From NCBI GenBank assembly GCA_035084275.1, contig CM068755.1, positions 10,912,001-10,976,000 on the forward strand: a stretch of 64,000 nt of DNA, written 5' to 3'. This document shows positions 404-64,000 of the stretch, one piece after another. A program made the position numbers and the translations under genes. Position 1 is the first letter of the stretch. Every line of letters begins with the position of its first letter. The notes under the pieces are model-generated. The model was not told the DNA's origin. It did not search any database and saw nothing but the letters and a program-made list of their open reading frames with translations. Source of the stretch: Hydrolagus colliei. Taxonomy: Eukaryota.

Positions 404-489
404 GCTGGACTTTTTATTGGGAATGGAGTGAAAACAACAAAATCCGATGCTGAGAATCCCAGAGAGGTTCTTGCAATAGACATTGCAAG
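404..489 (+). CDS. Gene A exon (AGLFIGNGVKTTKSDAENPREVLAIDIAR)
   Basis: ctag|GCT acceptor, GCAAG|gtaatt donor; 86 nt, same size as paralogous CEMIP exon 55141-55226. Confidence 0.9.
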
Positions 490-3400
490 GTAATTGTAGA
501 CAATATGTTGTATTGAAACATCCCAAACAATTTCTCTTAATTTCACAATCCGTTGGTACAGTGTTCATGAATTTTTAACATGGGTTTGGTTCATCATAAA
601 CATCTTCACCTCTTTAAGGCATGTTGCAGAGAGTAATTCAAATATACCATTGGAAACATTGCCACATAACAGCAAAAGACATTAAATTGTCATAGGTGTT
701 ACATTGTCCCATTCTATGTGTAAACTTCCTGTGAAATTGATAGCCGGTCATGACTGCCATCACAAGGGAGGGTACCAGTGGGTATGTAGCCTCAGCATAA
801 GTTTTCACTTAGGAAAGACCACGTTGATCTCTCTGCCCCTACACTCTGGAACTCCATCCCACAGTCCCTTTGCCTTGCTTCCTCCCTTGTCTCCTTCAAG
901 GGCAGTCTCAAGACCCTCCTCTTCAATCGTGGCTTCTGCTGCCCTCCCAACTCTCTCCCTCCCCTCCTAGCTCTTTCCCTCTCCTCCCCCTAACCTGCCC
1001 CTCCTCCTTGCTCGGGTTCCGACCTGACTGTTCAGCGCCTTGGGACATCCTCCCAACGTGAAAGACGCTCTATAAATGTAACTGATTGTTGCTGTGTGCA
1101 TACACTGGCAAATGATAGCATTGTAGGAACACGCTAAACTGACTAATTTATTCTAGTTTTGTGACACTTCTGGACTTGTAAATGAGTCAGCTCCTGAACA
1201 GGTAAGACAAACATTTGGTAATAAGTACTGGAGAAAATCCCAAACCCTTCCTCCCACGGACCTCTAAACATATTATTCTCATTTGATCTTGAGTTCAATT
1301 GCTTTTAGTAGCGCAAAATACTTGAGATCTCTGTGTGTTTTCATAGATTTTAAAACTGTCCATATCTCTGGAATAAAATGAAAGGTGTAATGTTATTTAA
1401 TTCACAAAACACAAGGTAGATTCACTCAATTCTTTAATGCAAACTTTACAAGGCACATTCTTTCAAATCAACTTCTTTCACACTCTCCTTCAAATCTGCA
1501 AGGCACTATTTCCAGAATCCTTTTATACTTGCACATTCCATAATCACTTATGTCGTTAAAGCAAATACGCAACAAAAGATGGGAGCGAGTGTTTAGTGTG
1601 TCATAATCTGGCCTCTCGCCCCTGAGATCTGGATTGATGTTAAGCTCACACTAATGAGTCCAATGTAAATGGATTTCAATACAGTTTCTTGTTTCAATAT
1701 ATGCAAATACTGTATTACCACTAAATTGTCAATCTGCCACAGAATGATGGCATGGGAACAGAAAATATCACACGCACCCGATGTTGTGCCCTAGTTTACG
1801 CAGTTACTCTGCCTCTCATTCTAGTTTCTCTAACCAGGAAGTACTGCAAACTGACACCACATCCCTGAAATAGGAAAGCACACCTTGTCCATTTGCGAAA
1901 AGCTTATTCAGCCGTACATTTAAAGCAGATTTTACATTTATAAAGCTCCTTTCACATTGGGTGGGATATCCCAAGGCGATGGTCAGTCAGGGATTTGGAC
2001 CAGACATCATTTAAGATACTGAAAATTGTATATTAGTGCATCAGATTGTAATATTTAGCTGTCTGCTCCTGCTGCGGTTTGGGTTCTTATGTTATTAAAT
2101 GCTTAAGGGATTAGACGAGAACCTTGGAGTTTTGTTTGACCCTCAACTGCCCTTTCTACCCCACATCAACTGCTTGTCTGCCTCCCCAACTCTCCCTCCA
2201 TAGGTTGCAGATCATCCAGGACTCTACAGCCTGTGTCTTCTCCCGCACCAGGCTCTATGACCTCATACCCCATTCTCGCTCAACTCCCCTGGCTTCCCAT
2301 CATAAAGAGGATACAGTTCCTGTTATTCACTATCAAAGCTCTCCTTGGCTTTGTTCCCTTCTACCTCTGTGACATACTACCCCCCCCCCCCCCACCACCA
2401 TCCTGCCTGCTCCCTCCGCTCAGTGGACTCTGGCATGCCTTAATATCTCCTGCCTCGTCCGCACCACCATTGGCAGGTGGGCTTTCAACCACTCTGCCCC
2501 ACCTTCTGGAACTCCATCCCACAGTCTCTGCACTTCATCCTCTCCCTTGCCTCCTTCAAAAAGCATCTCAAGGACCCCCTCTTCAACGGTGCCTTCGGTT
2601 TCCACCCTCTCTGATCCCAATTCTCAGCTCGAGTCGAAACCCTGATTGTCCAGTACCTTGGGACATTATCCCAGCTTGAAAGGCACTATAGAAATATAAT
2701 TGTTGTTCAAAGTACATGCTATTGACCGCCGGGTCTGTTTCCAAGATAAATCTTTCATATGACTGCAAGAGAACTAACCATCTGGTTTGTATCTTTGACA
2801 TAGGTTTCGTCCACATCAGGATGCTGATCCAAGAAAGCCTCGAGTTCCTGCCAATATTGATGGTCTTGTAGCCTTTAAAAATAATGATCATGGTGCCTGG
2901 GCTAGAGGGGGTGACATTATATTCAGCAACTCAGGGTATGTTCTCTCTATGCTTCAGCTGCTACTGTGGTATAGCAAACTGGTTATTATAATAGATTACT
3001 AGTTACTTTAAATTATATATTGTTTCTGGAATTCAAAAGTGGCTTTCTTTGTGTTTTTACAGGTTCTCAGACAATGGAATTGGTTTGACTCTAGCAAGGT
3101 AACTTTATTGAAATTATGTTTCTAGCGTTATAAGTGCAGTACTGTAATCCATGTCATTATCCAGCCAATCCCCTGAATCAAATCATTGAACATGTATTTA
3201 AAGTTCAACCCAGATCTTCGACTGGCAGAAATAATTTGACAATAATCTCAAGAGACAAATGTGGTCAACTTGTTTAGTTTTTTTTCAATAATTCTAAATA
3301 TTTCTTGCCATCAAAGTGAAGCTGCGTTGTACAGTGCCCCACAATGGACTCACATTGCTAAAGGACAAACTAAACTCTGAAGTGGCACTCGCCTTTCCCA

Positions 3401-6400
3401 CACTTGTTCCTTTTTATTTGTTGCCTTGCATAATGCTCTGTAAAAAATGATTGCGGAATTAGGGACTTTGTTATCCATTCTCAGGATCCCTCACGTAGGT
3501 TTCACACTGGTTCCAAAATACCCACTAACTCGGAGCATTAAGACAGGCCCCCACACTCTCAATTTCTCAGCTGTATGTAAGAGCTTTTTAATAGACACCC
3601 TATCCTAGACTCCCAGGCTGCATATTAGGCTTTCCAATGGTTTCCAGAATCCTGCAAAATAAATTGTTCTCGTATGGCTCTCTTTGTTTGCTGCTGAGTC
3701 ACAATGCTAGGCAAATACATACAAATTTCAAGTATGGCATTCCTATCCTCTGAGATGTGTTAACTCTGGGTTTAGCCTGAAGATCCAGGCAATGATAGAC
3801 AATGCGCCAGGATTTGCCGGTTCTCGAGCCCCATGTTAAATTTCTAAGAAAGTGAATTGCACATCTCTATCTGAATTAAGTCACTGGAACTTAGTGGTAT
3901 CCTTTTATGCTGAAAACAAAAATTTGAAGGGAACTTTTATAATGTGAGTCATTAGATACCCTGGGATTTGGGGCAAACATGAAGGGTATGAATTAACAAT
4001 TCAGAAAGCTTAGTGATGGTTGTCGTTTGTGTGAGATAACTGTTTGGCAACGGTACCATTGGTTGACTTGTGGTTAGAAGTTTTTTTTTACTTTTGACTT
4101 TTAAATTAAACAAATTTTAAATTGAAAGAATTTGGAGTGCTAGGGCCTGATGTGTTAATTATTGCAATTCAAGCTAGTTCCACGATGTCCATATATAGTT
4201 GTTTTGATTGTATGAATGTTTTATTTAATAAGCAGCAAAGCTAAAGTGGCTCTAGTGATAAAGGGCTTTTTGTAAGTGTTGCAGTTTATTGTCATGGTAG
4301 CTGATTGCTTGTGGGCATTGAGAGACAGTATGAGGTCTGTTTTTTGTTCATGGGTATCACGGTGCTTTTGTTTGTGATACTGACCACAGGAAACAGAATA
4401 GCAATTATAGTGCAAGTTGCTTGGGGCACAAATGACACTTGGTTCATATTGTAGTAGTTCTGGTTGGGATTGTTATCTCGTGTTCGTGGAAATAATTCAA
4501 TTTTCCATGTACAGGAGACCAATTATTTAGAACATAGTGTTATTGGCCACATATATATTTTACTAAGCCTTTGCTTATCTACTTATAACCAGGTCCTCAA
4601 TGGTTTAAATGTACAATGTTCCTCTCTTTTTTGCTTTTAATTGTTTGAAAGTTTGTCATGTGTTTTGCATCAAAAAATGTCTTCATTTTAAAATGGTTAT
4701 TCTCTTGTGTACCATTCTCAGGGCAATCAGACACAGAATCATCCTGAATAAATGTGTATTCAAAACGAAACTCTTTTCTTTCTGCCTGACAATTGTTCAG
4801 GCACAACTGACAAGTGAAGGTACTCAACAGTAGCAATTATTGTTCGTTTTTGTTTCCATAGCGACGGAACTTTCCCGACAGATGACGGATCGAGCTTGGA
4901 AGTGAGCAAATCAATCTTTGTTGGGGAAAGTAGTAATGTGGGCTTCAATGGAGGAAAAAACAGATACTGGGGAAAGGGAGCACATGGTGAATACAGGACA
5001 CTTCCCAGAAACAGGTAGACAACGAGAGCTTGAGTGGATGAGGCATTTTTTTTGGACTTGATATTGCAAGAAGCAACAAGTGCTGAAAGGCTTAGCTGTT
5101 AAGTGATGATTTTCGTTTCCCTCCGTCTTGTGTTTTATAGAACCTTTCCCATTCGGGGATTCCAAATCTACGATGGTCCGATCCGACTAAAACAATGCAC
5201 GTTTAAGAAATACCAACCCACCCATGAAAGATATTCTAGTGCTCTTGCATTTTTTATGAGGAATTCCTGGCAAGTCAGCCCTCAGAACAATGTGTCTCAG
5301 CTGATGATGGAGAGGAGTGTAAGTTGCAGAACTGTTCTTTGTTGTGAATCCAAGCGTAGCAAGAAGTCGGTTACCATGACTGATCACTGTTTGAAGGTTT
5401 TCTAGACTTCGAATGAAAATTTGATTAAGTTCTGTTTATGTTGCGGGATGCTATACAGTTGTTTGAAATAAACATGACTTTGAATTTCCCTGAGGTTGCC
5501 GGTGCTGTGAAATTCTCTCCATTACATCTGTTAAGTGGAATCTGCAAATCTAGCAGAAACCACTGAATGGGTTAGGGAAAGGAAAACACATGAGCCCAGA
5601 ATAATATGTTCAGTTATGTTAAGACAGCAGGGCAAGAGTTTTAGGTCAATTTTAGGACAGACACCATGAGATATTTCTGTACACAAGAGAGTAATAAACC
5701 AGTGTAACAGATCACCAGGAAAAGTAGTCAAGGCAAGGGACAGTGGGCTCTTTTACAAACAGCTCGAAGATGTAGTTGGAAGATGTTAAGATTGACATTC
5801 AGGAAGAAGAAGGCCAATTGAATCGAGTGCCTTCATGTTCTCCAAAGAAAAAAATTAACAATTTAATAATTATTTCATAAATCTTCTCCTTTTTATCTGA
5901 AGGTTTGTGTGTTGAATGTAATGATTTACAATACGTACCCTGCAATGGCACCTGTTAGTACTCTGTTCAGTTGGTCCTGAAATGGCTTTTTGAGTTGACT
6001 AGCCATTTGAGGTCACAACTGAGCCTGTTTTCATCTGTGTGATTTCCAGCAAAGGCATAACATTGGGGTGTGGCGATCCTGTTCAATTTGATGCCTCTTC
6101 CCAGTTGCTCCTTAGTTGAGTTCAGCAACTTAGCATAAGATGAAGGGGATTGAACATATCTTGTGTCAGTTTCACACGAGGCGTAAAAATGGTTGTCCTA
6201 TAAGGTAGTTTACCAACCGAGCAACCAAATTTTGTATTTGAAATGTGATAAACATCATTCAGATTTTTTGGGGGAAAACATACAATATGGCTCATGTTTC
6301 TGGGTTTGAACCCAAATCTCTGGTTGGCTTCGAAAGGTTTAACAAATTGTTAAACACAGTCCTGAAGTGCGTGACTTACTCCTGTGTTATGCAACCAATA

Positions 6401-9400
6401 TTCTAGCAAACCAACAATCGCAAGACATTTCAAAATACATTAAATCCTAATTATTTGGCCTAAGTTACTTTTTAGATGCAAGAATGCTTATTTGGCAGCA
6501 TTTAACACATAACCAATTAAACCAATTAGGTTTAACAAATTCAAGCACTGTAGGCATCTGCATAATGAATAATACCTGCATATTTTGGAAAAAAAAATGA
6601 CTGCAGTCAAGATCAGTGGACTTTGAAAGATTGAATTGGAAACGTCTGGCTTTTTTTTAAACAATGAAAATTTAATGACATATTTTGACTGTAATGACAA
6701 AAAATATTAATTTAAAACAGTGGAACATTTTTCAGTTCATATTCCAAATTGTCTGGAGTTTTCATAGGTAAATAGTGGATTGTTTAGAATTGTACTTTAA
6801 ATTACTGTGGTGTTAATATACAAAATGTGCAGGCATAGGCTATTATATTGTCTCATATGTTATTTTTGTCCTGGGTTTCAATTCAATACTTGAATTGAAA
6901 AGCAGATGGCCTTTGTTTGGAGCATTCCCTTCCAGTACCTCATTTTCCTTCCTTGTTTGTAGGTGGGACTTAAAGTATTCTTTGGCAAAGCAGGACAGTG
7001 GTTTGGAGATATTGACCTCGATGGTGACAAAGCTTCTATTTTCCACGACTTGGATGGTTCAGTAACTGGATTTCCAGACACATTTGTCGCCAGAGCTGAC
7101 AACTATCTGATTCGTCATCCAGGCTGTCTTAGTGTGCCAAAATGGAACGGAGTCATATGTAGTGGAAAATATGCTCAGGTAGTGTTTACTAAAATTGCAT
7201 AACTTTTGGGAGTCCAGATTGCATATTGATAACTTTGTTGATCTATTTTTCTGGGAATACTAGCATTTTGTTTTGTACGATATTTAATCTCCAATGGACA
7301 ACGCTAGTAAAAGAATTAAGGTGAAAAGGATTGAAGGATCGAAATTCAATTCAGTTTTGAAATTCCTTTTTGATTTTCACAGATTGAGGTTTTTGAAACA
7401 TTTTGAGTGCTGCCCTCAACACAAAAGTTGAAGCCCAATAATTTCCATGCTCCATTTTGCTCCAATTGATGGGAAATCAATGTTTTAGTGCAGCTACAAA
7501 TTGGACATCGATTTAATGCAATCAAGTATCCTTTGAAGCAGGAATGAAATCCTAGCTCCAGGCATTGAAAGGCATATTAAGTGTATTTTCACCATTTTGC
7601 GCGCTTAGATTTCTGGCGAACTTGTGACTTCTGTTTACAGCCGTCTTTTTGTTAGGTTTTCACCAAGTTCATAAATAGGTCAATCTGATCTTAATACAAT
7701 ACCCCACCCTTTGAATTGATTTTCCATTTCTCAGTGTTTGCAACATTCAGTACAAGTGCTCACCTATAGCTACAAAACTTTTCATCTTCATGATAATTCT
7801 TAAACGTAAGCCATTTCTGTTTACGTTTTCATAAGCTGTTCACACTTTCTATGTTAACATTCAGACTGATTTGTATTTTTTCGTTTTTATCTGTAAATTG
7901 CCACAATTTCCTTTGCTCTTTATGAACCCTGGTTAGTTTACCACTGCCGTACTCCTCTGCTGGATTTGAACATTGACAAGTATCCTTGCTTGTCCCCTCA
8001 AGTAATTAAGTTCTGTTGGGAGAGTATCTATTTCCAAACATTTATTTCTTCTTTCCAATGGAAAAAAAACACGAGCACATCTGCCAAATCTCCTCTCTAG
8101 AGAATGTAATTTTGAGGGATGTGTACTGTAACCTTCTTAGAATATTCTTTAAATCCTCTGTGTCTCTGGCCCGCAATAGATACTCTAGCTTTCCGAGATA
8201 TTAACCAAAATTGCTTTTGAAGGATTCCCCCGAAATGGATGGAAAAATATTTGTAAAGCCACTTTGGCTTTTCTAAATTGTTATTGGCTAGTAGCCACAT
8301 TGTCCTACCCAGAAAAAGAAGAATGTGTGACCTAACAAACAAAATTCTTAAAAATGTCTGAAATTACCCTTTTAATGTCAGAACTAATAGAACACAACTT
8401 CTTGGATATTTGCAAGAGCTGTTTATTTCAGTCATGCAAAGTTGGATTTTTTTTTTAGTTTTCAACACTTGCTTTAGTTTAATTTTAACAGATTGTTGAA
8501 TTATTCAAGTTGGTGCTAGCCAGGCGGGTTTTCGTGTCAGCTCTGAGCAAAGTGGATGATTGTTAATCATCACAATCTGAAAAGAGGCACAAAGCAGCAG
8601 AGTAGTTCCAAAAGTCTTAAAATAGCATGAACCAAAACTGATAGAACAAGAGAGTACTAGAGACAGCAAACAGTTTTTTAAAATAAAGTGGTTCCTCGCC
8701 ACATATCTTCAGAATCTGGAACGCTGATGTTTCGTGCAAAACGGCAAATGCATTGTTAAGGTACAATAGTCATTCACAATTGATAACTATTGTTAATATT
8801 CTCAAGACCCCCGTTCATGAGTCCCGACCTTGACTTGCCTTGGGATGTCCTTCCGACGTGAAAGGCGCACAATAAATGTAAATTACAATAAATGTAATTT
8901 TGTTGTTGTTAATTTGGCTAAAATAAATATTGCAACCAAACCTCTCCTCTAATTGGATGGAACTCGATATTTCCATAGCCTTTTATGACTTACCGGTTTT
9001 GATCTCCAAAGTACATTTGTAAGAATGTGTGACTTTAATGTGGATTAATGCCTGCTGGCTGTTCGCTTAAAGAGATTAATAAAAGAATGCAATCTGCTAA
9101 TAATCCTTGACTAATTACCAGGTTACATAGAAACTAGCACCAGTGTTAATTTTCGAAAGTGCTTCTCTCTGCATGTGTCGGCTGGTGGTGTGGAGTTTGT
9201 GTTTGTTCAGTAGGCCAAAGATTAAATGAAAAACAATGGGGTTACCAAAAACTGCTGGATTAATAAATGTGCTGAAACATCATCAATGGAATAGTTTTGG
9301 CAGTGCAACATTTGCAACAGAATATTTTGAATAATCCTCTGACTGCAATTCTTGCACCATATTTAATGCACAAACGTGTATCAAAAATATACTAGTCTAT

Positions 9401-27323: not shown

Positions 27324-27451
27324 GTCACCTAAGCTATAACATTAGAAACAAGATGACGACGGAATACATTCTACTGGATTTCCCTAATTATCAAATGTAT
27401 AGAAGTGCTGAATCTCTGTCACATTACTTGTATTTTTGTATCACTGGTTTA

Positions 27452-27457
27452 AATAAA
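27452..27457 (+). terminator. Candidate polyadenylation signal of gene A
   Basis: AATAAA about 130 nt after the stop codon. Confidence 0.5.
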
Positions 27458-28479: not shown

Positions 28480-28748
28480 CTCTTTGGAGGCGAGGTGGCT
28501 CCAGGTTGACTAGTCTGACTGAGGGAGACAAGAGGGAACTCTGGTGGACTCAGTGATCTGATATCTGAGTGAGGCAGGTCTGCAGTGGTTTGAGGCACTT
28601 AATCATTGACCGATTGGTCAATGCCCTGTTTACCAGTTTGACTTTGAAGGATAGATATGGCACTGGGAGTCAATCTTTCCAGCCAGTTGCCCTGCAAGCT
28701 ATGGTCCTAGCTAGACAGGCTAGGAAAACTTCTGAGTGCCTCAAACAG
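28480..28748 (+). other. Candidate non-coding 5' exon/promoter-proximal region of CEMIP (5' limit uncertain)
   Basis: Locally G-richer segment ending in consensus donor CAG|GTAAGT at 28748; matching pyrimidine-rich acceptor ...tgcag at 29832 ahead of the ATG exon. Inference only. Confidence 0.45.
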
Positions 28749-35900: not shown

Positions 35901-37103
35901 AATATGAGGACATTTTATTTTTAGGATAGTTGGCTGTTTATCTCATATCTCATTCTACTAATAATCTGATGGTTATATATGAGATCCAGAGAGATTTCAA
36001 AGAACATCGTTGCTAGCTTGATTACTGCGTTGGTATTTTCACTAACATAAAGATTAATTATTATTCCATAATTGACTGCGCTGTTTGGGTTATCCTTTAT
36101 ATTTCAAATTGTATGGCTGCATTTCTATTATAAAACAATATTTGAAAGCTTCTTCTGCTATTAAAGTTCTTCATTTTCTTTAATTTTGTAAAAAAAAATT
36201 CTCGGCTTCAATGAAGACCTTAATAGAGTAATTAGAACGCTTTTCCGTTTCCTTTTTGAAGGCATCCTTGGAGCTTCATCACAATAAAGGGACATCCCGA
36301 AACTTCTGTGGAGGATCACATTATCTATCAAGGTAACACCATCCCCAATTTGGCGTAACTAACTTGTTGCATTGTTTATTTAAAATGATAAAAAAATGAG
36401 ATTATGGATGCACACACAGTTTGTACAAATCTGACATTAATCTCTTTGCCAGTCATTGCTTATGCATCCAGGGATATGCTCAGCAAACACTGGCCTGCTT
36501 CATGTCCCCCGCTCTAACATTTCCGACCTCGATGGATGGATTTTCAGCTATATTAACCCTGCTTTCTGTAACTCCATCCCACAGTCCCACTGACTCGCTC
36601 ATTCCCTTTCAAGGCCCATTTCAAAACATACCTTGTTTTTAGTACTCTATCCACTTCCACCCTCAGATCAGGAGCCCAACCAACATTGTCAAGTGAGGGA
36701 GTTTCTGACAACAACATGATTTTGTTTTAAGCATTCATTGGAAAAATAATGCGAATGAAAGTCTTGCTTTACCTTTTGAAAGACCACAAGTGTAAATTTG
36801 AGCCAATTTTAGATTTTTTTTTGTTCACGGTTGATGAAACAGGTACCGAAGCATCAGCTGTGGCGAAAGTGTTTAAACTTTTCCAGTCGCCTTATGGAGA
36901 TCACTTCACTGTTGCCTCAACCAGCGAGTGGGTGCAAGGTAAGATCTAAATTTTTGCCAAGGCAATTTTTTTTCATGGCTGTTCAAGCATGTGGTTAATA
37001 GTCTTCATACCCCTATTAGAAATTCCTTGGTATTTTGCAGAATGTTAACCATTCCGAGTATTTTTTGTTTAAAGAAACATATATTATGTTTGAAATTATG
37101 TAC

Positions 37104-37159
<56 letters not shown>

Positions 37160-55100: not shown

Positions 55101-58100
55101 CATCTGAAGAAGTTCTAACGTGCCTAAATATCTTCTACAGGCTGGATTAATGCTTGATCACGGGGTTAAAACCACTCCAGCCAATGCAAAGGACAAGAGG
55201 CCGTTCCTCTCACTGGTTGGTTCAAGGTGGGTTCATGGTGTAGAATAGAATACTAATAATAATCCTTGCATTTGATACAGCGCTTTTCACATCTTCTAGA
55301 CATCGCAAAGCACTTCACAGAAGATACTGTAAAGTGAATTGACTATATTTGTGGGTGAAATGCGGCAGCCAATTGCGCACCACAGTGTCCCACAAACAGT
55401 TGTGAATTGTAATGACCATTTTATTATTATTTTTGAGGGATTATTATTGCAGAACAATCCTGCAACAGTTATGTTACAGAAAACACTTCATTCTCCTGGG
55501 GAAGACGAGCTGGTTTGGGAAGATGTGCATTTTTAATTTAAAACATATTAAAATATACATATCATGTTATTTTTTAAAAAAACACTGTGAAATTGTTGAT
55601 AATAGTATTTATTTCAAAGGCCTAATCAAAATCAAATGTGTAGTTTGTTTAAAAATGTATCCGTGCTTTTGTAACTGGGGATAAATGGTGATGAGGTTTT
55701 CTATTTTAATTAAGTAATGAAATTAGCATTTTTCCATACATTATTTGGCTGGTAATTGATTGATAATTTGTTGTTAATTTGTGCACCAGGATATACGAGC
55801 GAAATGTTTCTTCCTGTGCATAAATATGGTTGCATTTTATATTGTTCTGCATGTCCTCGGGGAATCCTTTGGTGTCAGACCTGCAGCTGGGTGGATATTT
55901 TATGAATTTATTTTAAATAAATTTGAATTTAAATTTTGTATCGGAATGAAAAGACGATGCATATTCACTACATTTTCTATTCAAGGCGTTGCGGGAAAAC
56001 ACATAGGCTGATTCATTCATAATTGGGAACTTTAATTGATTTATGCAATACGTTGATCAGTATACATTAAAGAGGAAGGGGAAGAGAAATACGCTGTAAA
56101 TAATTCAGAGAAACAACTCAGTATGAATTCTGTGGGTGTTCGTAGGCAGAATCTAAAGAGATTATCTGCCAATGACATAAAACAGTGCAGCTGGAGAGAA
56201 TTCAATTCAAGAAGTTTTCCTCTTCGTAAAATGTAGCGTTCTGAATAAAATCTTAATTTTGTTTTTGGTGAGGATTTGAAACGGTTGTCTGATTTCTTCT
56301 GGTTTTAGGTATAGTCCCCATAAAGAAGCTGATCCATACAAATCCAGGGAGCCTGCTTTAATCAACCATTATATTGCTTACAAAAATCAGGACCACGGGG
56401 CTTGGCTTCGTGGTGGTGATGTGTGGTTGGATAACTGCCAGTAAGTCATACTTTTACTCTTTGAAATACAATTTATGGATTTAATCACTTTTTTTGTTAA
56501 AAAAAACAAAGATTGGCTGTGTACTTTAAATAAAAATGCATTGCATCATCATTCTCTACAGCTCCGGTCCTGATCATTATTTTTCTGCACAGTGGTAATC
56601 AAGTATACAAGGATTCATTCCATTTGTTTTCACTTGTGTAGTATGTCTGCACTGATGAGTCACGTAATATTTGCAATAGAGCATGTGTATAGATTTACCT
56701 TTGAAACATCCCAGCACAGTGTATATATTCCGTATAATACCAATAGATAATTATAAACTATGAATAAATAAAACCTCTTGCACAAGTGTGAGAATAACAG
56801 AATAAGTTTGGCAACAAATATATCCTATAAATATGTAAACATTTGAACACAACAATGATTATTTGCTAAATGTACTTTGGGCCAAGAGGAAAATTTGGTC
56901 TATATCAAATTGATGGCTATCTTGGAAATCTTCAAACCAGTTGTAACAAATCGTACGGCATTAAATTTGAAAAGGTGCATCAAAGAAGGAAACCAACTCT
57001 ATTTTTTGCATTTGTCTCAAACAGTGTATTGGCCTTTACTTCATATCAAAATATTTCTGTGTGCAGCGACGTATTGCACACTAGGAAGGTCAAATATGCA
57101 AATATGAATGATAGAAAATGTGGTCGGTTAATTCAGACATCGCAAAGATGTTGCAACGAGAGAAAGAGACTTCTCCCTGAGCATTGTAAGCTCACTATTA
57201 GCCTGGTTAAGAGATTTCTGAGCAACTCAATAGCTCATCCAAGTTTGCTGACGTTAAACATCTTTTTAAAATGTTTTAATTTGGTTCAGATTCATGACAT
57301 AATTATTCATTCATATCTGTTCTTTCTCTTTAGATTTGCTGACAATGGAATTGGTTTGACCCTTGCCAGGTATGTGCTTGCAATGATTGATTTTTTTTTT
57401 GATGATGATGTCTCTCTGATGTCCTCGTTCGTACTGGGGTATAACTGTATAACTGTCAAGGTGCAGAGTGCCAACATTTACCTTACTCACCTAGTCATTC
57501 CTCAAGCCTGAGTCAAGGTAGTGAGTGAAAATAACTTGTCCCGAGACGTCCCAATGACATGATAAGGTCCTATATCAAACGCAAGGATTGTTATTATTAA
57601 TGTTCACAAACATACTCGCAGGAATCACTGAAAAGTGATTGAGAAGAGAATCCCAAGTTGATTTACCCTGAGATCCAGGTTAGGTGCTGAGCAGTTACAC
57701 CCCAACTGTTGTCCTGGCTGAAATCAGATGACAATTTCTCAACTGTTGATAAAGCATTGTGGACTTCATGACCCTTGATATCATATAATAATCAAATAAT
57801 ATTTTACATTCTTAGTGGTGGGACTTTTCCAGACGATGATGGGGCCAAACAGGAGATTAAAAACTCTTTGTTTGTCGGGGAGAGTGCTAACCGAGGCACA
57901 GAGATGCCGGGGAATCACTTTTGGGGGCCTGGCGGTTTGGATCACAGTGGACGAGCTCTTCCCAAAGGAGTGTAAGTAATTCACTGCTAGCAACAGCAAA
58001 TCACATTTGTGGAGTGCTGTAGCCTTGCAAGCAAGAAACTAGGGTTTGATTCCAGGCAGGGTGGAAACCTTGAGCAAATTTCCTTACTCCACATGCCTGA

Positions 58101-61100
58101 TAATAACTCCTCAAATAAAACAATAATAAATTGCTCACTTCAATCCATGACTGTTTGTGGGACACTGCTCTGCACAATTGGCTGCTGTGTTTCGCCCACA
58201 AAAATACAGTCAGTTCACTTGAAAGTATATTCTGTGAAGCACTTTGAGAAGTCTTGTAGCTCAGTGGTTAGAGCACTTGTCTTACAAGCGAGAGACCTAG
58301 CTGGGTTTGATTCCAGGCAGGGCGAAATCTTGAGTTTCCTTACTCCAAACAACTAATAATAATCCTTCAAAAAATAAAACAATTGCAAATTGGTCATTTC
58401 AATCCACAACTGTTTGTGGGACGCTACTGTGCGCAAATAACTGCCATATTCCGTCCACAAATATACAGTCGTTTATGGTCTATTCTGTGAAGCGCTTTGA
58501 GACTCTAGAAGATGTGAAAAGCACTATATCAAATGCGGGATTATTATTATTAGTATAGTGCCTTTCACATCAGGAGGACATCCCAATTCACTGGACAGTC
58601 AGGGGATCCTCACCCATGCTGGTGGTTGATATCAGGAAGGAGGGTGATGGAAGGCACGTTCGACAAGGAGGGTCTTGAAGCAGGCAAGGGCCATGCATTG
58701 GAATTGCATCACTCTTTGTTTCCGTGTGTTTGCAATATGCTAAAATTAAACGTTTTCTCTATGTGCTTGTCCAGAGTTCGTTAAAGCAAGAAACAGTTAA
58801 TTTTGGGCAGAGGAATCGATTTCCATTCTTGCCATATGAGGTAGCTGGTGAAGCTGAAGCTCCCCCTCCCACCGTTGGGACTTCATCACCGCTTCATATC
58901 TTTCTCCGTTGCATCACCTCAAAAATAAAAGATCAATTTGTGACGAATTATGTGCCGTGCATCTAGGAGGCCCCTCTCAAAGCCAAGGGAGAAAATAGCA
59001 CCTTGTAAATCAGTCAGGGGTAAATGTGCATCCCAGGCCATTTCAAGTTTCCATTTTCAGAAACAAAAGGTATTTTTAATCCCCGTGCTCTGAACCGTTT
59101 CGCTTACTTGTGTGAAAAAAAATTAGCCATGGCTAATTTTGCAACTCTGAAACTGAATGGCGTTTTCTTTTCCCAGGAAATTTCCCATTCGAGGAATGCA
59201 GATCTACGACGGCCCAATTAACGTACAGAATTGCACTTTCCGTAAGTTTGTGGCACTGGACGGACGTCACACCAGTGCTATTGGTTTCCGACTCAACAAT
59301 GCCTGGCAGAGCTGTCCTCAGAACAATGTGACAAACATCACGTTTCAAGATGTGCCGGTATGTCTTTCGATTTGAGCACTTTGTAATAATAATAATACTT
59401 GTATAATAATACCGTTAATACCGAAATAATACCGTTTCGGAGCTTGAACCCGCAACCCTCTGACTTCAGAGCTGAGTGTGTGCCAGGCTGACACACTAAT
59501 GTGACCAGTTGCACTGAGAAACAAACCCCACAATGGGTGCACATTTCCCGTTCTCTTCATTTGGATTTTAAAATCCCTAGCAAACCCTTGTGTTCATGTT
59601 AGAACATTGTGTCATAATATATAGGAATCCTAGGACTTTCAAGATCTTAAGTGACTTCCTCATGACTGTTTCGTATCTCTTTGTTGATGAGAAAATTGTG
59701 ATATCTCGTCCATTCAGATCACATCTCGTGTCTTCTTTGGAGAGCCAGGCCCGTGGTTCCACCAAATGGAAATGGATGGGGATAAAACGACTATCTTCCA
59801 TGACGTGGATGGCTCAGTCTCTGAGTATCCTGGATCTTATATTGTAAAGCATGATAACTGGTTGCTGAGACATCCTGAATGTATTGACGTACCAGACTGG
59901 AGGTCGGCTATCTGCAGCGGTCGCTTTGCACAAGTAAGTTGGCAGGTTTATTTTCATACCAAATATTGTTTCCACAAAAAATATTATTTTAAAAACACCT
60001 TCATTTACAAAAGTTTGAGATTATTAGGCCTTTCAGTATATTTTAACCTATGATCTGTTTAGTAATCCAGTCTTACCATATTTGCTCAACACTCAGAACA
60101 ATACTTAATGTTACATTCTGAATTAAACATTGTCATTCTGCAAAGCAGATTTCATATTATTGCCTGTGACTTCATACTACTATATATATGGATTTGTGAG
60201 GAGCAGTCTGTTGCGTGTTTAGTTCTCACGGGTCCCCATCGCAGTCAGTGTGCTTTCCTTCCTCACCTACTTTGTTTATATTAATGCAAGAATCAAACTT
60301 GGATCGGTTTCCTCTCATCAGTTTTTATTTCAATTTTTGCTTCAAGGTGTATATTCAGACTAGAAAACCAGCGAACCTGAAGATGAAGATGATTAAAGAT
60401 GAATACCCTAACAATCCTCTGCTCTTGAAGGGTGCCCTGGGCAGACACAGTCATTACCAGCAATACCAACCTGTGGTTATGCTACAGAAAGGATACACTA
60501 TCCACTGGAATGGCGTAGCCCCTGAGGAACTAATAATTTGGCTCATCAACTTTAACCGGTGAGTAGAAAACTTTCAGTCCCAAGATAAACTCCTCGAACT
60601 TATTCAAGAGCGATTCAATGTCCATTTCACAAGAATCCTGTCTTCTGTGTGCATATAGTTTTAATGAACATGCCATGTTGATATTGGCCAAGATGCGTTA
60701 AGTGATTACATTAAAAGCAACAAGCCACCACTAACACCCCCCCCCCCTCACCCACCCCACACACATAGACACACTCCTCGGTCTCTCTAGGTGCAAGTGG
60801 TCTGATCTAAGATGGACACCTGCGCTGGTTTGTAATTCTAAGGTCCACTAAACAACTTTCAATTACTTGTTTTGTTCCATTCCTTTCCCTCTAGAGAAGG
60901 GATTTACCTCATCTTGAGATCAGCTGAGCTCATCTTCTATGACTGTTACAGTTGGGACCTTAACTAATGCATGGACAAGTTGTGCAACTTTGATACAATT
61001 TATCCTGGAGGAAGTGAAAATGCACAGAGTCAGAAGTGAACTTGTAGCGTGATTCATCCTGACCAAACCCTACTTATCCTGCACCTTTTTCAGCGAATCT

Positions 61101-64000
61101 GTGCCAAATTTGCAGCATACACGGAGCTATTCCATTCCCTCAGCAGTTCCGTAGCTGCACATAAAACTAAACATACAAACTCCACACGTCTTTCTGTGCT
61201 ATTTATACAAAAAGTTACTCATTAAAATTGGCTGCAAAAACATAATGAACTCATTATACCACCTAGCTGGTAGGAACAGTTCCCGGTTGGCCTTTCCTAG
61301 GATTAGGCTACAAAGTGAAGCATTGATTTCTGTCTAAGGAATCTCTCCAGGGTACTTGTAGGGTAGATAATGACCTACACAATGAAAACAGCCCTGCACA
61401 TAGGGACCTGAAATGGAGATATGTGCTGAATATTTTAAAATTAATTCAAATGAGTACTGAATGTTCAACCCCATAATTTCTCTAAAGAGAAAAAACAAGC
61501 AATAGAAAGAATTATGATTATGTTTTATTTATTTTACTTGACTGATTAACAGTGGCACTGATGACATTGTTAAGAGAAACTTGTCAGGAAGAGTTACCGA
61601 GTTGGATTGTGTGCAGGATCTATTGACTAGAGTTCAAAACAACAAGTTGCTGAAGCGCCCTGAGTTACTGGCTGTGTCTGTAGTGATGTTGTTTCCCAAG
61701 TTATACTGGAGATCAGCGTCAGTTAGGCACATTAACAATCCTGCCTCACACAAAGAGGATATGTTATTCTGCCTGCAACTAAGTGGCATTCCTGTTTGCT
61801 CCAAATCTTACCACCTATGTGCAAACACATGAATTTAGGATGTGCCAAGACAGTTGATCAAGAAGAAATAGGCTTAGAGTTGCAAAGACAATTTCAGTAC
61901 AGACACTGAGAAGTATTTTCTTTACCCGGAGGCTAATTAACGACTAATAAGGTGGTTAAGGTCAGGATGCTGGACACACACATAGAGCATTTTAATCTCA
62001 TGCTTAAAGATTACCCTACTGCCCGTCACACACACACATCCTTTACAGCATTGAGTTGCATTGTAAAATAGTCCAGTGTCCTGGCCTCAACCACCCATCT
62101 TAGAAATGAGTACCAGTAGTTAATTACCTTTTGGGTAAAGAAGCTTCCTGTTGTCTGTCCTGACTTGGTGGGGGCTCAGGCAACAGAACTCCTGCCTCCG
62201 TACCAGAAGATTTTGAGTTCCAGCCTCATGTCAGAAATTGAGTTCACTTTCTAGGCTGACACTTCAATACTGGGAGAGGGATTGCTGCATTGTTAGCCAT
62301 GGGATCTTGCAGATGTGACTTTAGTTGACGTTCCGCATGCCTGTCCTCTGGTGAAAGTTAAAGATTCCATGATAATGTTTGAAGAGAGAACATTCCATGA
62401 TAATGTTTCCCCCAAATCCTGGCCAACAATCTTCAGATTAAAATTAGTCATTCATCTCATGGACCCATTGCCCTGCGCAAAATGGCTGCCGAGTACGCCT
62501 ACAAAAGTAAGAGAAAATGCATCAAGTCCAAGATTAATGTCTTCTAATAAACAAATATCTCATGCTCTGTGTAGATAGCTATTTTTATGATCTCGTAAAT
62601 TAAAACCAATTTATCAAAAAGTTATGTAAATTGTTTCCAGATGGTAAAGCTACTTATGAAGGGGGGATATATGCAATTGACAAATGCTTTATGTTTAAAC
62701 AGATCTTGGTAATCTTGTGGTTCCTAAAGGAAAATAAAAGGTCTAAGGGGGTTGAGATTGGTGTTTATTTTTAGGTTTACTTTTATTGTGGTTGGAGAGA
62801 TTAGGAGGAATGTTTGTGTTCAGTTCTTTTCCAGTCACTCGCATGAATATTTTGCCAATCACACATCTTGCATGTGGACCACAGATGGTACTGGGCTCAG
62901 GAAGAATTCATTGAAACATTTGTATAGTGCTTTTATTTAGCCCAAGGCAGTGAACAGTCAAGGCTTGGTATCCATGCTTGGTGTCGAGAGGGGTGGAGAG
63001 TATGGATGTGGGTATGGGAAGCTGGCTGAATGCACGTTCGAAGAAGAAGGTCTTGAGATGGGCCTTGAGGGAAGTAAGGGAGGGGGTGACTGTTAAACAT
63101 CTGAATTATTGAGGTACAATCTCAGTGATAATTTATTATTAACTGTTATCAGTGTAGTAACTGTAAAATGACTTGCTTTCATGTTGTCCTAACTCACCCT
63201 GCATTATTGCTTGTTACAATCTGTATTCGTATTTTACAGGAACGACTGGATCCGAGTAGGAATCTGTTATCCTAAAGGAACTACATTTAGTATTCTCTCA
63301 GACATTCATAATCAGTTAACAAAAAAAACAGTCAAGACTGGAACTTTCCTGCAATCCCACCAGATGGAGAAACTGGACCGTACCGACTCTGGCAGAGGCT
63401 TCTACTTCTTTGATGAGGGCGCTGGGTACGTCAGTCATCATTAAGATAGTAACACATAGCGTACATCACCTGTTGACTCTTAACATTACTACTGGGTAGA
63501 AATATCCTCGTAAGAATTAGCCACGATATTCAGTGGTGTGTGGCAGGAATAGAGGTCGGAAAATGTAATATAGCCATTTTAAATCTCTTAAAATGTATGT
63601 TGCTGCATTTATCTTTTGCTAAGATTTGATATTAAGTTTCAAAAATTTCTGTAGTTCTGTCTGTATAAGCTTTTGAAGTCGGATGCGGCAGAGAAGTTAC
63701 ACACTTATTTTCCTGTGAATTATTTGGCAAAAATAAAATGCCTGTAAATTAAGCTTTTGAAGTGCGCTTTGATTTTAATAACAGCAAATTTGCTTAATTT
63801 TCATTCAAAAAGATTGTTTCACCTCATTCACATGCTGATTTTTGTTTTATTTTTCCCAATCAAAGAGTTCTGTTCTTGAAAGCGAAAGCTCACCATGACC
63901 GCCAGACTTTTGCTTTCTGCTCTGTGAGAGGCTGTGAGAGGATAAAGATCAAAGCCATCGTTCCAAAGAATAGCAAGATTAGTGACTGTGTTATGAGGGT
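29925..64000 (+). CDS. CEMIP: Gene B: cell migration-inducing hyaluronidase 1 (CEMIP/KIAA1199/HYBID), 24 coding exons, 3' end outside the window
   Basis: Signal peptide, then G8 (CPDQDPDLRHWNPGHD), GG1 (SWGHRG..FDTY), WxxW and PbH1 repeats. CEMIP-specific motifs KDKRPFLS, AYKNQDHGAWLRGGDVWLD, RLNNAWQSCP, FAFCS..GCERIKIKA. All junctions GT-AG and in phase. Confidence 0.96.
31185..31292 (+). mobile_element. tRNA-SINE 3' fragment
   Basis: cagtcaattcacttt..tatatcaaatgcaaggattattat tail. Confidence 0.7.
31432..31569 (+). CDS. CEMIP: CEMIP exon (ACPDQDPDLRHWNPGHD...IHIFDG), G8 domain start
   Basis: acaag|CT, GGAG|gtattt. Confidence 0.92.
31614..31722 (+). mobile_element. tRNA-SINE 3' fragment
   Basis: cgcccacaaaatgtacagtaaattcac...aaatgcaaggattattattatt. 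Confidence 0.75.
31950..32091 (+). CDS. CEMIP: CEMIP exon (GRLVISDSGKQPIVLRTRNILIEAGGELHIGSEVCPFQSNFTIILYGR)
   Basis: tgcag|GC, GGAAG|gtaaat. Confidence 0.94.
32199..32435 (+). CDS. CEMIP: CEMIP exon (SDEKT...KYIGV..GGTLEIHG...SWGHRG...HSDK)
   Basis: cgtag|A, GACAA|gtgagt. Confidence 0.94.
32723..32902 (+). CDS. CEMIP: CEMIP exon (FDTYKSKDESKRLADYLN...VAVNDEGS...LGFR), GG1 domain
   Basis: taaag|G, TTCAG|gtacgc; 180 nt. Confidence 0.94.
32934..33352 (+). mobile_element. Interrupted tRNA-SINE with an internal pyrimidine-rich insertion (about 33118-33273)
   Basis: SINE pieces in order: cagggcgaaaccttagg, ttggctgccgtgtttcgcccacaaatatacagtcaat, tatattctgcgaagcgctttgag..aggattattatt. Confidence 0.7.
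36262..36332 (+). CDS. CEMIP: CEMIP exon (HPWSFITIKGHPETSVEDHIIYQ)
   Basis: tgaag|G, CAAG|gtaaca. Confidence 0.92.
36843..36938 (+). CDS. CEMIP: CEMIP exon (GTEASAVAKVFKLFQSPYGDHFTVASTSEWVQ)
   Basis: aacag|GT, CAAG|gtaaga. Confidence 0.9.
37104..37179. repeat. Compound (TG)n(TA)n microsatellite
   Basis: Directly visible dinucleotide runs. Confidence 0.95.
37272..37393 (+). CDS. CEMIP: CEMIP exon, WxxW domain part 1 (DVEWTEWFDRDDERGSGDWEKLSDLRAAFPGKICASPVDIQ)
   Basis: tgcag|AC, ATACAG|gtaaac. Confidence 0.93.
37656..37803 (+). CDS. CEMIP: CEMIP exon, WxxW domain part 2 (ASTVNEIPANFTTQVFHKHDRDYGFVCRNQDQVDGICHNYKVRFLCGTP)
   Basis: tttag|GCA, CCAG|gtttgt. Confidence 0.92.
37884..37944 (+). 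pseudogene. Partial intronic duplicate of the 5' part of CEMIP exon 37656-37803
   Basis: acattgactgttaatggaatcccaaccaatttgacaaccaaggtatttcataaacatgatc vs exon gcatcgactgttaatgaaatcccagccaacttcacaacccaggtattccataaacatgatc (8 substitutions in 61 nt, no indels). Confidence 0.85.
39282..39473 (+). CDS. CEMIP: CEMIP exon (VWPKVTVTIDT...STDYSMYQTEEFQLLPCPECRPNQIKIR)
   Basis: tgcag|TG, CGTG|gtacga. Confidence 0.93.
39895..39990 (-). mobile_element. Second copy of the Penelope-like short repeat
   Basis: gaaaactcagcaggtcaggcagcatccacggagaaaggaaagtgagtcaacatttcgggtccacgacccttc aligns with 11525-11597. Confidence 0.75.
41494..41816 (-). mobile_element. Full-length tRNA-derived SINE
   Basis: Reverse complement shows head ggagctcctgtggcttagtggttagagcac, box B gttcgaatcc, body and tail. 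Confidence 0.9.
43450..43715 (+). mobile_element. Deu-domain SINE interrupted by a short L2 tail (about 43545-43596)
   Basis: ggctggcgtttcagtgcactgcagggagag..gagatgttaaacaagg Deu core; nested ggacatcctccccaggtgaaaggcgctctataaatg with TGGAC on both sides. Confidence 0.6.
43790..43948 (+). mobile_element. CR1 LINE 3' end
   Basis: gatagctctttcaaagagccagcaaagacatgatgggccgaatggcctccttccctgctgtaaaattctatcattctatga. Confidence 0.8.
44050..44219 (+). CDS. CEMIP: CEMIP exon (GKAKYLHIGEEVDGIDMRAEVGMLSRNI...GGHIK)
   Basis: tacag|GA, ATTAAG|gtacag. Confidence 0.94.
44357..44566 (+). CDS. CEMIP: CEMIP exon (MGIGFKATHIEGAELKHMGQQ..YPIHFH...RCVTIHGSNGLL)
   Basis: accag|ATG, CTACTG|gtgagt. Confidence 0.95.
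44631..44748 (+). mobile_element. tRNA-SINE 3' fragment
   Basis: tttcacccacaaaatatacagtgaattcactttacagtatatt...taaatgcagggatt. Confidence 0.78.
46356..46722 (+). mobile_element. Full-length tRNA-derived SINE, long variant
   Basis: Head ggagtcctgtagctgagtggttagagcactc, about 70 extra nt after the head, standard body and tail. Confidence 0.88.
46800..47020 (+). mobile_element. Degraded Penelope-like repeat (third copy, opposite orientation)
   Basis: ttcagttctgacgaaaggtc...gactgaccttactgtagatttgcagtatttttgttttt resembles the reverse complement of 11467-11609. Confidence 0.5.
48170..48420 (+). mobile_element. L2-like 3' fragment
   Basis: gacatcctcctgacatgaaaggcattatatac tail as in the other L2 ends. 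Confidence 0.55.
48998..49203 (+). CDS. CEMIP: CEMIP exon (VKDVIGYNTLGHCFFTEDG...PKPRQDC)
   Basis: tctag|GTG, TGCAA|gtaagg. Confidence 0.95.
52150..52262 (-). mobile_element. tRNA-SINE 3' fragment
   Basis: ataatgatccttacatttgatatagcgcc...gtaaagtgaattcactgtgtattttgtgggtgaaatgc. Confidence 0.78.
53747..53816 (+). CDS. CEMIP: CEMIP exon (AVSTFWIANPNNNLINSAASGSE)
   Basis: tacag|T, TCCGAA|gtatgt. Confidence 0.94.
53958..54086 (+). CDS. CEMIP: CEMIP exon (ETGFWFIFHHVPTGPS...NNRAHSNFR)
   Basis: tgcag|GAA, TTCAGG|gtaggt. Confidence 0.95.
55141..55226 (+). CDS. CEMIP: CEMIP exon (AGLMLDHGVKTTPANAKDKRPFLSLVGSR)
   Basis: tacag|GCT, TCAAG|gtgggt. Confidence 0.93.
55254..55440 (-). mobile_element. tRNA-SINE, 5'-truncated
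   Basis: taataataatccttgcatttgatacagcgc...cagtgtcccacaaacag..gacc. Confidence 0.85.
56309..56440 (+). CDS. CEMIP: CEMIP exon (YSPHKEADPYKSREPAL...AYKNQDHGAWLRGGDVWLDNC)
   Basis: tttag|G, TGCCA|gtaagt. Confidence 0.94.
57334..57369 (+). CDS. CEMIP: CEMIP micro-exon (FADNGIGLTLAS)
   Basis: tttag|A, GCCAG|gtatgt; 36 nt. Confidence 0.93.
57816..57971 (+). CDS. CEMIP: CEMIP exon (GGTFPDDDGAKQEIKNSLFVGES...GRALPKGV)
   Basis: cttag|T, GGAGT|gtaagt. Confidence 0.94.
58011..58552 (+). mobile_element. Head-to-tail pair of tRNA-SINEs (58011 to about 58247; about 58248 to 58552)
   Basis: Two heads (ggagtgctgtagc..., gaagtcttgtagctcagtggttagagc) and two bodies but only one terminal tail. Confidence 0.87.
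59177..59357 (+). CDS. CEMIP: CEMIP exon (KFPIRGMQIYDGPINVQNC...FQDVP)
   Basis: cccag|G, GTGCCG|gtatgt. Confidence 0.95.
59718..59933 (+). CDS. CEMIP: CEMIP exon (ITSRVFFGEPGPWF...AICSGRFAQ)
   Basis: ttcag|ATC, GCACAA|gtaagt; 216 nt. Confidence 0.95.
60347..60558 (+). CDS. CEMIP: CEMIP exon (VYIQTRKPANLKM...YQQYQPVV...WLINFNR)
   Basis: tcaag|GTG, AACCG|gtgagt. Confidence 0.94.
62170..62520 (+). mobile_element. Deu-domain SINE, degraded
   Basis: ctaggctgacacttcaatactgggagagggattgctgcattgtt...aaagattccatg...gcgcaaaatggctgccg; internal direct repeat attccatgataatgttt. Confidence 0.65.
63240..63425 (+). CDS. CEMIP: CEMIP exon (NDWIRVGICYPKG...FYFFDEGAG)
   Basis: tacag|G, GCTGG|gtacgt. Confidence 0.94.
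63866..64000 (+). CDS. CEMIP: CEMIP exon, truncated by window end (VLFLKAKAHHDRQTFAFCSVRGCERIKIKAIVPKNSKISDCVMR...)
   Basis: caaag|A acceptor, in phase with the previous exon. Confidence 0.92.

Follow-up and report, generated by a model that had tools for sequence, protein, structure and literature searches.

Genes and features of the locus

The window analysed, a stretch of 64,000 nt with 38 % G+C and depleted in CpG, contains two genes of the CEMIP family on the same strand, modelled from tblastn matches and inspection of splice sites. The upstream gene (gene A) comprises 13 exons at 404–27323 (+), all bounded by AG/GT and spliced to a single open frame of 658 aa plus a stop (TAG at 27321–27323). 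This portion was confirmed as the intact last 13 exons of a TMEM2-type gene. It encodes the C-terminal 658 of approximately 1,585 aa; the 5′ half (~926 aa: N-terminus, G8 and first lectin-like domain) falls upstream of the window, and statements on the N-terminal half rest on orthologues. The downstream gene (gene B) is CEMIP, which starts with an ATG at 29925; its 24 exons on the + strand reach the end of the window and encode 1,172 aa in a frame that stays open throughout. The features are as follows.

404–489 (+), 86 nt: first gene A coding exon in the window (at about aa 927 of the Callorhinchus milii orthologue)
2804–2935 (+), 132 nt: gene A exon with the RFRPHQD and KNND motifs
3063–3098 (+), 36 nt: gene A exon
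4862–5014 (+), 153 nt: gene A exon
5141–5318 (+), 178 nt: gene A exon
6963–7178 (+), 216 nt: gene A exon, used with 3 further bases as search query
10088–10296 (+), 209 nt: gene A exon
19161–19343 (+), 183 nt: gene A exon
21706–21928 (+), 223 nt: gene A exon
22505–22606 (+), 102 nt: gene A exon with the TSDPH motif
25252–25412 (+), 161 nt: gene A exon
25771–25880 (+), 110 nt: gene A exon
27136–27323 (+), 188 nt: last gene A coding exon, with the stop and a TMEM2-type YGC tail
27324–29924 (+), 2,601 bp: spacer from the gene A stop to the CEMIP ATG
29925–29991 (+): first CEMIP coding exon, encoding a signal-peptide-like N-terminus
31432–31569, 31950–32091, 32199–32435, 32723–32902, 36262–36332 (+): CEMIP coding exons 2–6
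36843–36938, 37272–37393, 37656–37803, 39282–39473, 44050–44219 (+): CEMIP coding exons 7–11
44357–44566, 48998–49203, 53747–53816, 53958–54086 (+): CEMIP coding exons 12–15
55141–55226 (86 nt), 56309–56440 (132 nt), 57334–57369 (36 nt), 57816–57971 (156 nt) (+): CEMIP exons paralogous to gene A exons 1–4
59177–59357 (181 nt), 59718–59933 (216 nt), 60347–60558 (212 nt), 63240–63425 (186 nt) (+): CEMIP exons paralogous to gene A exons 5–8
63866–64000 (+): CEMIP exon cut by the window end
14016–14115, 15391–16271, 31180–31725, 41494–41822, 46350–46725, 55253–55434, 58023–58550: copies of a ~300-bp interspersed repeat

The gene A exon at 6963–7178 matched residues 843–914 of the TMEM2 structure 8C6I (E 1e-31). 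A first-pass annotation of this DNA had read gene A as TMEM2-type from five motifs. Alignment upheld four of these, as RFRPHQD, KNND, TSDPH and the YGC tail are common to gene A and snake CEMIP2 and absent from CEMIP rows; the fifth, GFQIYDG, is not diagnostic because hagfish CEMIP carries it too.

The gene B protein was 93.8 % identical to C. milii CEMIP. Its exons 2–15 (31432–54086) encode G8, lectin-like domain 1, the WxxW insert and the beta-helix, with the CEMIP-specific WxxW insert carried by two exons within 37272–37803. A short intronic copy of part of the preceding WxxW exon lies at 37890–37943 (83 % identity to C. milii CEMIP across 18 aa, with a stop just beyond) and is probably a small local duplication. 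The distance of about 2.6 kb given earlier for the same-strand pair agrees with the measured 2,601 bp, and all of the exon-size pairs listed with it are exact (86/86, 132/132, 36/36, 153/156, 178/181, 216/216, 209/212 and 183/186 nt). The intron phases are also identical, with eight of eight gene A introns in the shared region at the same alignment column and phase as in gene B. The two proteins share 46 % identity over 432 aa. AATAAA/ATTAAA hexamers, which are candidate polyA signals, occur in the spacer ~129, 583 and 1,697 nt past the gene A stop. Copies of the ~300-bp repeat, 75–89 % alike, are found in introns of both genes. An Rfam scan of the window gave four tRNA-like matches only (15970, 41744, 46365 and 58250), which we read as heads of this repeat, as expected of a tRNA-derived SINE.

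A third CEMIP-family clade, sister to CEMIP2

Searching with the gene A exon returned 246 relatives, and the analysis covered the best 120 of them. The profile of one clade, named CEMIP2L here and 'CEMIP2-like' in databases, was the top scorer for all 119 named matches among these best 120 of 246, with a smallest margin of 300 bits. Within the same 120, CEMIP2L was represented among cartilaginous and ray-finned fishes by chimaera, sharks, rays, reedfish, sturgeon, gar, bowfin and three elopomorph teleosts, and among lobe-finned fishes and tetrapods by coelacanth, lungfish, frogs, turtles, crocodilians, lizards and birds. The gene B exon retrieved CEMIP in 106 of 106 named rows among the 120 matches listed. 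Canonical CEMIP2, hagfish CEMIP and invertebrate outgroups were obtained from a cluster-representative search and an amphioxus query.

A phylogenetic tree was reconstructed from 47 chosen proteins over 1,276 columns (LG+C20+F+G4 with PMSF, quick search). CEMIP2L (17 rows including gene A), CEMIP2 (11 rows) and CEMIP (11 rows including gene B and two hagfish sequences) each received an SH-aLRT of 100, and CEMIP2 and CEMIP2L were joined at SH-aLRT 100. A more careful tree of 25 rows, a subset of the 47, gave 100/100 for each of the three clades, with gene B inside the CEMIP clade, and 100/100 for the CEMIP2+CEMIP2L branch; both trees contain long-branched outgroups and hagfish rows of deviant composition, and neither has a chondrichthyan CEMIP2 or a cyclostome TMEM2-type row. 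Over the windowed half, gene A was 57–90 % identical to CEMIP2L rows, 48–53 % to CEMIP2 and 39–42 % to CEMIP, and it was 91 % identical over 658 aa to the C. milii 'cell surface hyaluronidase-like' protein XP_007905360. Together with the 93.8 % of gene B, this value suggests that the window derives from a chimaera other than C. milii. In each of the 15 alignment windows CEMIP2L was nearer to CEMIP2 than it was to CEMIP, by one point only in two of them. Grouping of CEMIP with CEMIP2 was rejected by the AU test (ΔlnL 66, p 5e-67), as was grouping of CEMIP with CEMIP2L (ΔlnL 67, p 5e-58). Gene A is the chimaera orthologue of CEMIP2L, a third vertebrate CEMIP-family gene and the sister of CEMIP2. 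The third paralogue that the first-pass annotation had proposed is thus seen as a third clade across jawed vertebrates (100/100 with CEMIP2), with gene A placed outside the CEMIP2 clade and apart from CEMIP by both trees and AU tests.

Two simpler accounts of gene A bear on this placement. It could be a local tandem duplicate of CEMIP, with CEMIP diverging fast afterwards and human CEMIP and CEMIP2 staying simple ohnologues. Adjacency, identical intron positions and the signal-peptide-like N-terminus of tetrapod CEMIP2L, as in CEMIP, all fit this account, but it is barely credible given its rejection by the AU test under the model used (p 5e-58), the lack of CEMIP's WxxW insert from CEMIP2L, the C-terminal tail common to CEMIP2L and CEMIP2, and the higher identity of gene A to CEMIP2 than to CEMIP (48–53 % versus 39–42 %). 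The probability that gene A is this genome's sole CEMIP2 orthologue, translocated beside CEMIP, is practically negligible. No chondrichthyan canonical CEMIP2 protein was found among the matches listed, in line with such a translocation; however, the tree joins gene A to the CEMIP2L of gar, coelacanth, frog and turtle and leaves out the CEMIP2 of gar, coelacanth and frog (100/100), a catshark cemip2 is recorded in the TRPM3 block on chr 8 (PMC13143021), and gene A would still be CEMIP2L even were CEMIP2 lost in chimaeras. CEMIP2 orthology of gene A was rejected on the separate clades (100/100) and on its position, which adjoins CEMIP and lies outside the ABHD17B/TRPM3/ZFAND5 block.

Gene A was 45.6 % identical to its own neighbour and 46.0–48.3 % identical to six other CEMIPs. 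Since the adjacent CEMIP is no more similar to gene A than the others are, gene conversion has left no sign, and no signal of conversion or recombination between CEMIP2L and CEMIP was detected in windowed identities.

No mammalian names occurred among the best 120 of the 246 gene A-exon matches, and five of five mammalian TMEM2-type matches classed as CEMIP2. From these sequence searches CEMIP2L was likely lost in mammals. The teleosts among the best 120 of 246 were elopomorphs only (three rows), with no zebrafish-, salmon- or perch-like fish. As the teleost rows are confined to elopomorphs, CEMIP2L may be lost or fast-evolving in clupeocephalans.

The CEMIP2L–CEMIP tandem and its origin

The position of CEMIP2L immediately upstream of CEMIP, in the same orientation, was fixed before chondrichthyans and osteichthyans split. 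The arrangement was read in DNA in this window and elsewhere indirectly from record numbers, and from gene models. The tandem was found in eleven other species, nine by accessions or locus tags and three by fused models, with A. sinensis in both sets. Consecutive or near-consecutive CEMIP2L/CEMIP records were present for C. milii (XP_007905358/360), Aldrovandia (KAJ8393075/6), axolotl (XP_069480267-8/269), Discoglossus (KAM4676365-6/67-8), Acipenser ruthenus (XP_058854905/6), Huso (KAK6476866/7), A. sinensis (FKN15_008392/008391), Polyodon (XP_041082896/899) and Atractosteus (MBN3313362/364). Fused models from Rhinophrynus (2,734 aa), Synaphobranchus (2,665 aa) and Acipenser sinensis read CEMIP2L and then CEMIP, and therefore fix both strand and order. 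In the C. milii CEMIP2L model A0A4W3GVJ4, the last 32 residues match window positions 29830–29925, just upstream of the CEMIP ATG; this tail is mis-spliced and shows the same adjacency in C. milii, for which the RefSeq isoforms have a normal tail.

All three paralogues were retrieved in six species (gar, Amia calva, A. ruthenus, Bombina, Discoglossus and Pelodytes), and in the last five of these CEMIP2L and CEMIP are on contigs of one length and CEMIP2 is on a contig of another. One exception to adjacency was Anguilla, in which the retrieved CEMIP lies on a different contig from CEMIP2L; we infer that this is the second copy from the teleost duplication. No tblastn match to ABHD17C was obtained within the 64-kb window. 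The sturgeon CEMIP2L 90 % cluster also includes ABHD17C fragments, which suggests a fused ABHD17C–CEMIP2L model and so adjacency; alignment detected no such fused model among the retrieved proteins. We take human CEMIP to adjoin ABHD17C, and the frog CEMIP2L contig (153.9 Mb) is presumably chr 3.

The genomic neighbours supply a context for dating the pair. ABHD17B was assigned by Lamb (2021) to quadruplicate A (human 9:71.86 Mb, frog chr 1) and ABHD17C to quadruplicate D (human 15:80.68 Mb, frog chr 3), the species order of the table columns being our deduction, and quadruplicates (A,B) and (C,D) were reported to have separated at the first vertebrate genome duplication (1R; PMC8040251). Table S2 of Morini (2026) places cemip2 in the TRPM3 block of human (71.68–71.82 Mb), duck (Z), frog (chr 1), catshark (chr 8), reedfish and gar (PMC13143021). 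By the published coordinates CEMIP2 is within ~60 kb of ABHD17B in reedfish (173.73–173.88 versus 173.94 Mb) and in human (71.68–71.82 versus 71.86 Mb). CEMIP and TMEM2 had no matches in the portion searched of the ohnologue tables of Lamb, which list three- and four-member families only (PMC8040251), and the CEMIP family had none in 13 of the 19 supplementary files of Hara (2018), a study of gene duplicates that certain lineages have lost (PMC5901865).

Yu (2024) reported that 1R was common to cyclostomes and 2R was not (PMC10927551). Hagfish CEMIP groups with jawed-vertebrate CEMIP, so the split between the CEMIP and TMEM2-type lineages predates the divergence of cyclostomes. In the 25-row tree, the CEMIP stem measured 0.47 changes per site up to the divergence of hagfish and 0.21 from there to the jawed-vertebrate crown, the CEMIP2L stem was 0.25 changes per site, and the position of amphioxus relative to the two vertebrate lineages received a support of 58/12 only. 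With 0.47 against 0.21 and amphioxus unplaced, the separation of CEMIP from the TMEM2-type lineage appears to be far older than 1R, and it would be so provided that rates were not extreme.

The sister relation of CEMIP2 and CEMIP2L, as a pair of 1R ohnologues would show, was recovered in the tree. Branch lengths are compatible with a duplication of these two older than the cyclostome split, in a tree whose rows include no cyclostome TMEM2-type sequence; no such protein was retrieved in the exon, cluster-representative or amphioxus-query searches, and no chondrichthyan canonical CEMIP2 was among the matches listed. A lamprey gene listed as cemip2 lies on chr 1 at 29.85 Mb, ~65 kb from a zfand5-type gene (PMC13143021), on the same chromosome as TRPM7, and fits neither block specifically.

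Given a CEMIP lineage split that precedes cyclostomes, the branch lengths and the paralogous blocks, the simplest history is a tandem, 1R and reciprocal losses. A secreted ancestral gene would have been duplicated in tandem before 1R, giving a TMEM2-type gene followed by CEMIP, and 1R would then have copied the block with the tandem. The ABHD17C copy would have kept CEMIP2L–CEMIP, the ABHD17B copy would have kept only its TMEM2-type gene (CEMIP2) and lost CEMIP, and mammals would later have lost CEMIP2L. A pre-1R tandem pair with subsequent reciprocal loss is the best reading of the data (probability roughly 0.8). The same tandem with reciprocal pruning was proposed from the window sequence at first pass, and it gains support from the third clade, the conserved tandem order and a paralogon context that fits a split at 1R, with the 1R date itself resting on published block assignments and branch lengths. 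This suggests that human CEMIP and CEMIP2 are older tandem paralogues in paralogous blocks and not ohnologues of each other.

A different history with the same tree topology would make CEMIP and the TMEM2-type gene the 1R ohnologues, derive CEMIP2 (quadruplicate A) and CEMIP2L (quadruplicate B) from 2R, and bring CEMIP2L beside CEMIP by ectopic or homoeologous recombination on the jawed-vertebrate stem. The failure to retrieve cyclostome CEMIP2L or CEMIP2 also fits, and this history keeps an outside chance. It requires, however, that CEMIP2L landed precisely upstream of a paralogue and on its strand, the neighbours show no signal of conversion or recombination, and CEMIP would have had to acquire 0.47 changes per site from 1R to the divergence of cyclostomes, more than twice the later 0.21; the CEMIP2L stem (0.25) would also be at least as long as the post-hagfish CEMIP stem (0.21). 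It is quite improbable that the tandem is pre-1R but CEMIP2 is a later segmental or transposed copy of CEMIP2L made on the jawed-vertebrate stem. The tree alone does not separate a genome duplication from a segmental one, but CEMIP2 lies within ~60 kb of ABHD17B in reedfish and human, and the ABHD17 family is listed as a curated ohnologue set split at 1R.

The pre-1R tandem has a parallel in the same paralogon, in which TRPM1/TRPM7 and TRPM3/TRPM6 are described as products of a local pre-vertebrate duplication followed by genome duplication (PMC13143021). Both TRPM tandem members survive on both blocks, whereas CEMIP would have been lost from one block and CEMIP2L apparently from mammals; these two losses would have hidden the history of the CEMIP pair.

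N-terminal architecture, likely function and naming

The Pfam families G8, ILEI/lectin-like (two domains), CEMIP beta-helix and CEMIP_X were above cut-off in three of three full-length CEMIP2L proteins scanned. The Mucin2_WxxW insert was absent from all three, present in C. milii CEMIP and weak in hagfish. The N-terminal regions differ among the paralogues. CEMIP2 has an 82-aa tail and a 25–29-residue uncharged anchor ending 10–11 aa before G8 (nine of nine), and the N-termini of CEMIP and of the invertebrate proteins resemble signal peptides. Those CEMIP2L orthologues whose N-terminus is complete lack a CEMIP2-type anchor directly before G8 and have a hydrophobic segment ~175–200 aa before this domain.

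Part of the intervening region is a conserved block of ~90 aa with two invariant cysteines and no Pfam match, modelled as confident helices by AlphaFold (pLDDT ~90, residues 70–157 of the frog model). In the CEMIP2L set, where many models lack the N-terminus, a profile of this stalk block matched 48 of the 118 long proteins, and it matched none of 108 CEMIP, 24 CEMIP2 and 48 invertebrate proteins; only the zeros are informative, because the profile was built from CEMIP2L. In fold searches, which used the stalk within a longer model, Foldseek gave a single match at E≤0.001, of the G8 part to 8C6I only, and the helical matches of VIA-align (Z ≤5.5) were at background level. An Atlas search with the stalk region gave no usable match. 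On these predictions, CEMIP2L orthologues have a clade-specific helical stalk domain.

Calls of anchor versus signal peptide were made heuristically from uncharged runs. Cartilaginous-fish CEMIP2L has an uncharged run of 18–28 residues, mostly after a long tail, which is signal-anchor-like. The run is 12–18 residues in birds, turtles and many frogs and is followed by a small-X-small motif (SQA, AQA or CEA) that resembles a signal-peptidase site; some amphibian and ray-finned fish rows have runs of 19–32 residues. A type II anchor upstream of gene A had been suggested for inspection and was sought in the orthologues. Chondrichthyan N-termini look right for such an anchor, but tetrapod ones are more signal-peptide-like. 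Chimaera and shark CEMIP2L would probably be a type II membrane protein on a stalk of ~190 aa, and tetrapod CEMIP2L may be released by signal peptidase; CEMIP2L is thus probably anchored in chimaeras and possibly secreted in tetrapods. The predicted stalk domain and the apparently signal-peptide-like tetrapod N-terminus are new here. A coelacanth CEMIP2L model (1,970 aa) has an extra hAT-transposase-like domain (PF05699) and a long unrelated N-terminal part and is probably mis-joined.

CEMIP2L can be compared with characterised members of the family. CEMIP2/TMEM2 (8C6I) belongs to the sister clade and has the same Pfam set, no WxxW insert, the same type of C-terminal tail and the conserved R265, D273 and D286. 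It differs in its identity to gene A (48–53 % over the windowed half), its location in another chromosome block and its anchor beside G8, where CEMIP2L has a shorter hydrophobic segment and a helical-domain stalk that is absent from CEMIP2. CEMIP/KIAA1199/HYBID has the same family core and eight of eight intron positions in common and is the immediate genomic neighbour of CEMIP2L, but it differs in its identity (39–42 %), its Mucin2_WxxW insert and its signal peptide directly before G8, and a sister relation to CEMIP2L was rejected. TMEM2/CEMIP-like proteins of amphioxus, Lingula and Owenia have the same core domains as CEMIP2L, with, unlike CEMIP2L, a signal peptide at the very N-terminus and no stalk domain (0 of 48). 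Amphioxus has a lineage-specific expansion of at least nine B. lanceolatum proteins, apparently on one contig and some with an added PF00754. In an Atlas search, the whole turtle CEMIP2L gave separate CEMIP2-like, invertebrate and CEMIP clusters. It also matched bacterial clusters with G8 and CEMIP beta-helix (0.89–0.90) and a mostly molluscan cluster (0.97), and the family core is therefore far older than vertebrate hyaluronan.

Substitution of R265, D273 or D286 was reported to abolish TMEM2 activity (PMC10206443), and the equivalents are kept in 16 of 16 CEMIP2L rows including C. milii (for gene A they lie outside the window). The H248/A303 pair of mouse TMEM2 (PMC10276149) was rejected as an activity marker as it is too variable outside mammals: CEMIP2L has His in 4 of 16 and Ala in 0 of 16 rows, and non-mammalian CEMIP2 also varies. 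Catalysis by TMEM2 itself is disputed, with reports against (PMC10206443, PMC10276149) and for it (PMC10474455). By analogy with TMEM2, the balance is somewhat in favour of CEMIP2L being a putative extracellular G8/beta-helix protein whose first lectin-like domain would bind hyaluronan and which would cut it, or help to cut it, into kilodalton fragments.

Published expression data include two genes that are likely CEMIP2L, judged by name and accession range. In hen shell gland at 15 h versus 5 h, the 'transmembrane protein 2-like' gene LOC415478 changed by log2 +6.06 and CEMIP by +7.56 (PMC6347800), and another study of the uterus also has LOC415478 among its differentially expressed genes (PMC10398974). 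In Xenopus, the 'transmembrane protein 2-like' gene LOC100491930 was listed among presumptive Six1/Eya1 targets (PMC5035141). A broader scenario, which we hold tentatively and regard as rather doubtful as a whole, is that jawed vertebrates other than mammals have in CEMIP2L a third, active hyaluronidase with a helical stalk domain of its own, anchored in cartilaginous fish and secreted in tetrapods, co-regulated with CEMIP (as the chicken shell gland hints), and lost in mammals and perhaps most teleosts, with human CEMIP and CEMIP2 as the reciprocal survivors of a pre-1R tandem. If this is true, CEMIP2L is missing from mouse and possibly zebrafish, and a natural soluble TMEM2-type enzyme would bear on the dispute over TMEM2 catalysis.

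In databases, RefSeq and UniRef models named 'CEMIP2-like', 'cell surface hyaluronidase-like' or 'transmembrane protein 2-like' (e.g. XP_007905360) are CEMIP2L orthologues under automatic names only. With '-like' annotations in many genomes and an Atlas cluster of its own, CEMIP2L is not unseen but uncharacterised. CEMIP2L records of X. tropicalis, alligator, woodpecker, coucal and bowfin carry the plain names 'cell surface hyaluronidase', 'CEMIP2' or 'TMEM2', and such plain TMEM2/CEMIP2 names are a source of orthology errors. 'TMEM2L' should not be reused for CEMIP2L because it is an old alias of CEMIP itself (PMC9704909). Our literature search, whose scope did not extend to subscription journals, gene-tree databases or bioRxiv supplements, found no paper on a third paralogue, the tandem or its history, and a 2024 review counts two genes in the hyaluronan-degrading family that is distinct from the HYALs (PMC11275217).

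Three genes of the family are present in chicken, Xenopus, axolotl, turtles, gar, eels and sharks, and work on knockdown, expression or orthology of 'tmem2' in these animals may therefore miss or mislabel one. The CEMIP locus indicates that a place in paralogous blocks does not by itself make two human paralogues ohnologues. As a TMEM2-type protein that has diverged in nature and may be secreted, CEMIP2L offers a direct comparison for whether TMEM2 itself is an enzyme.
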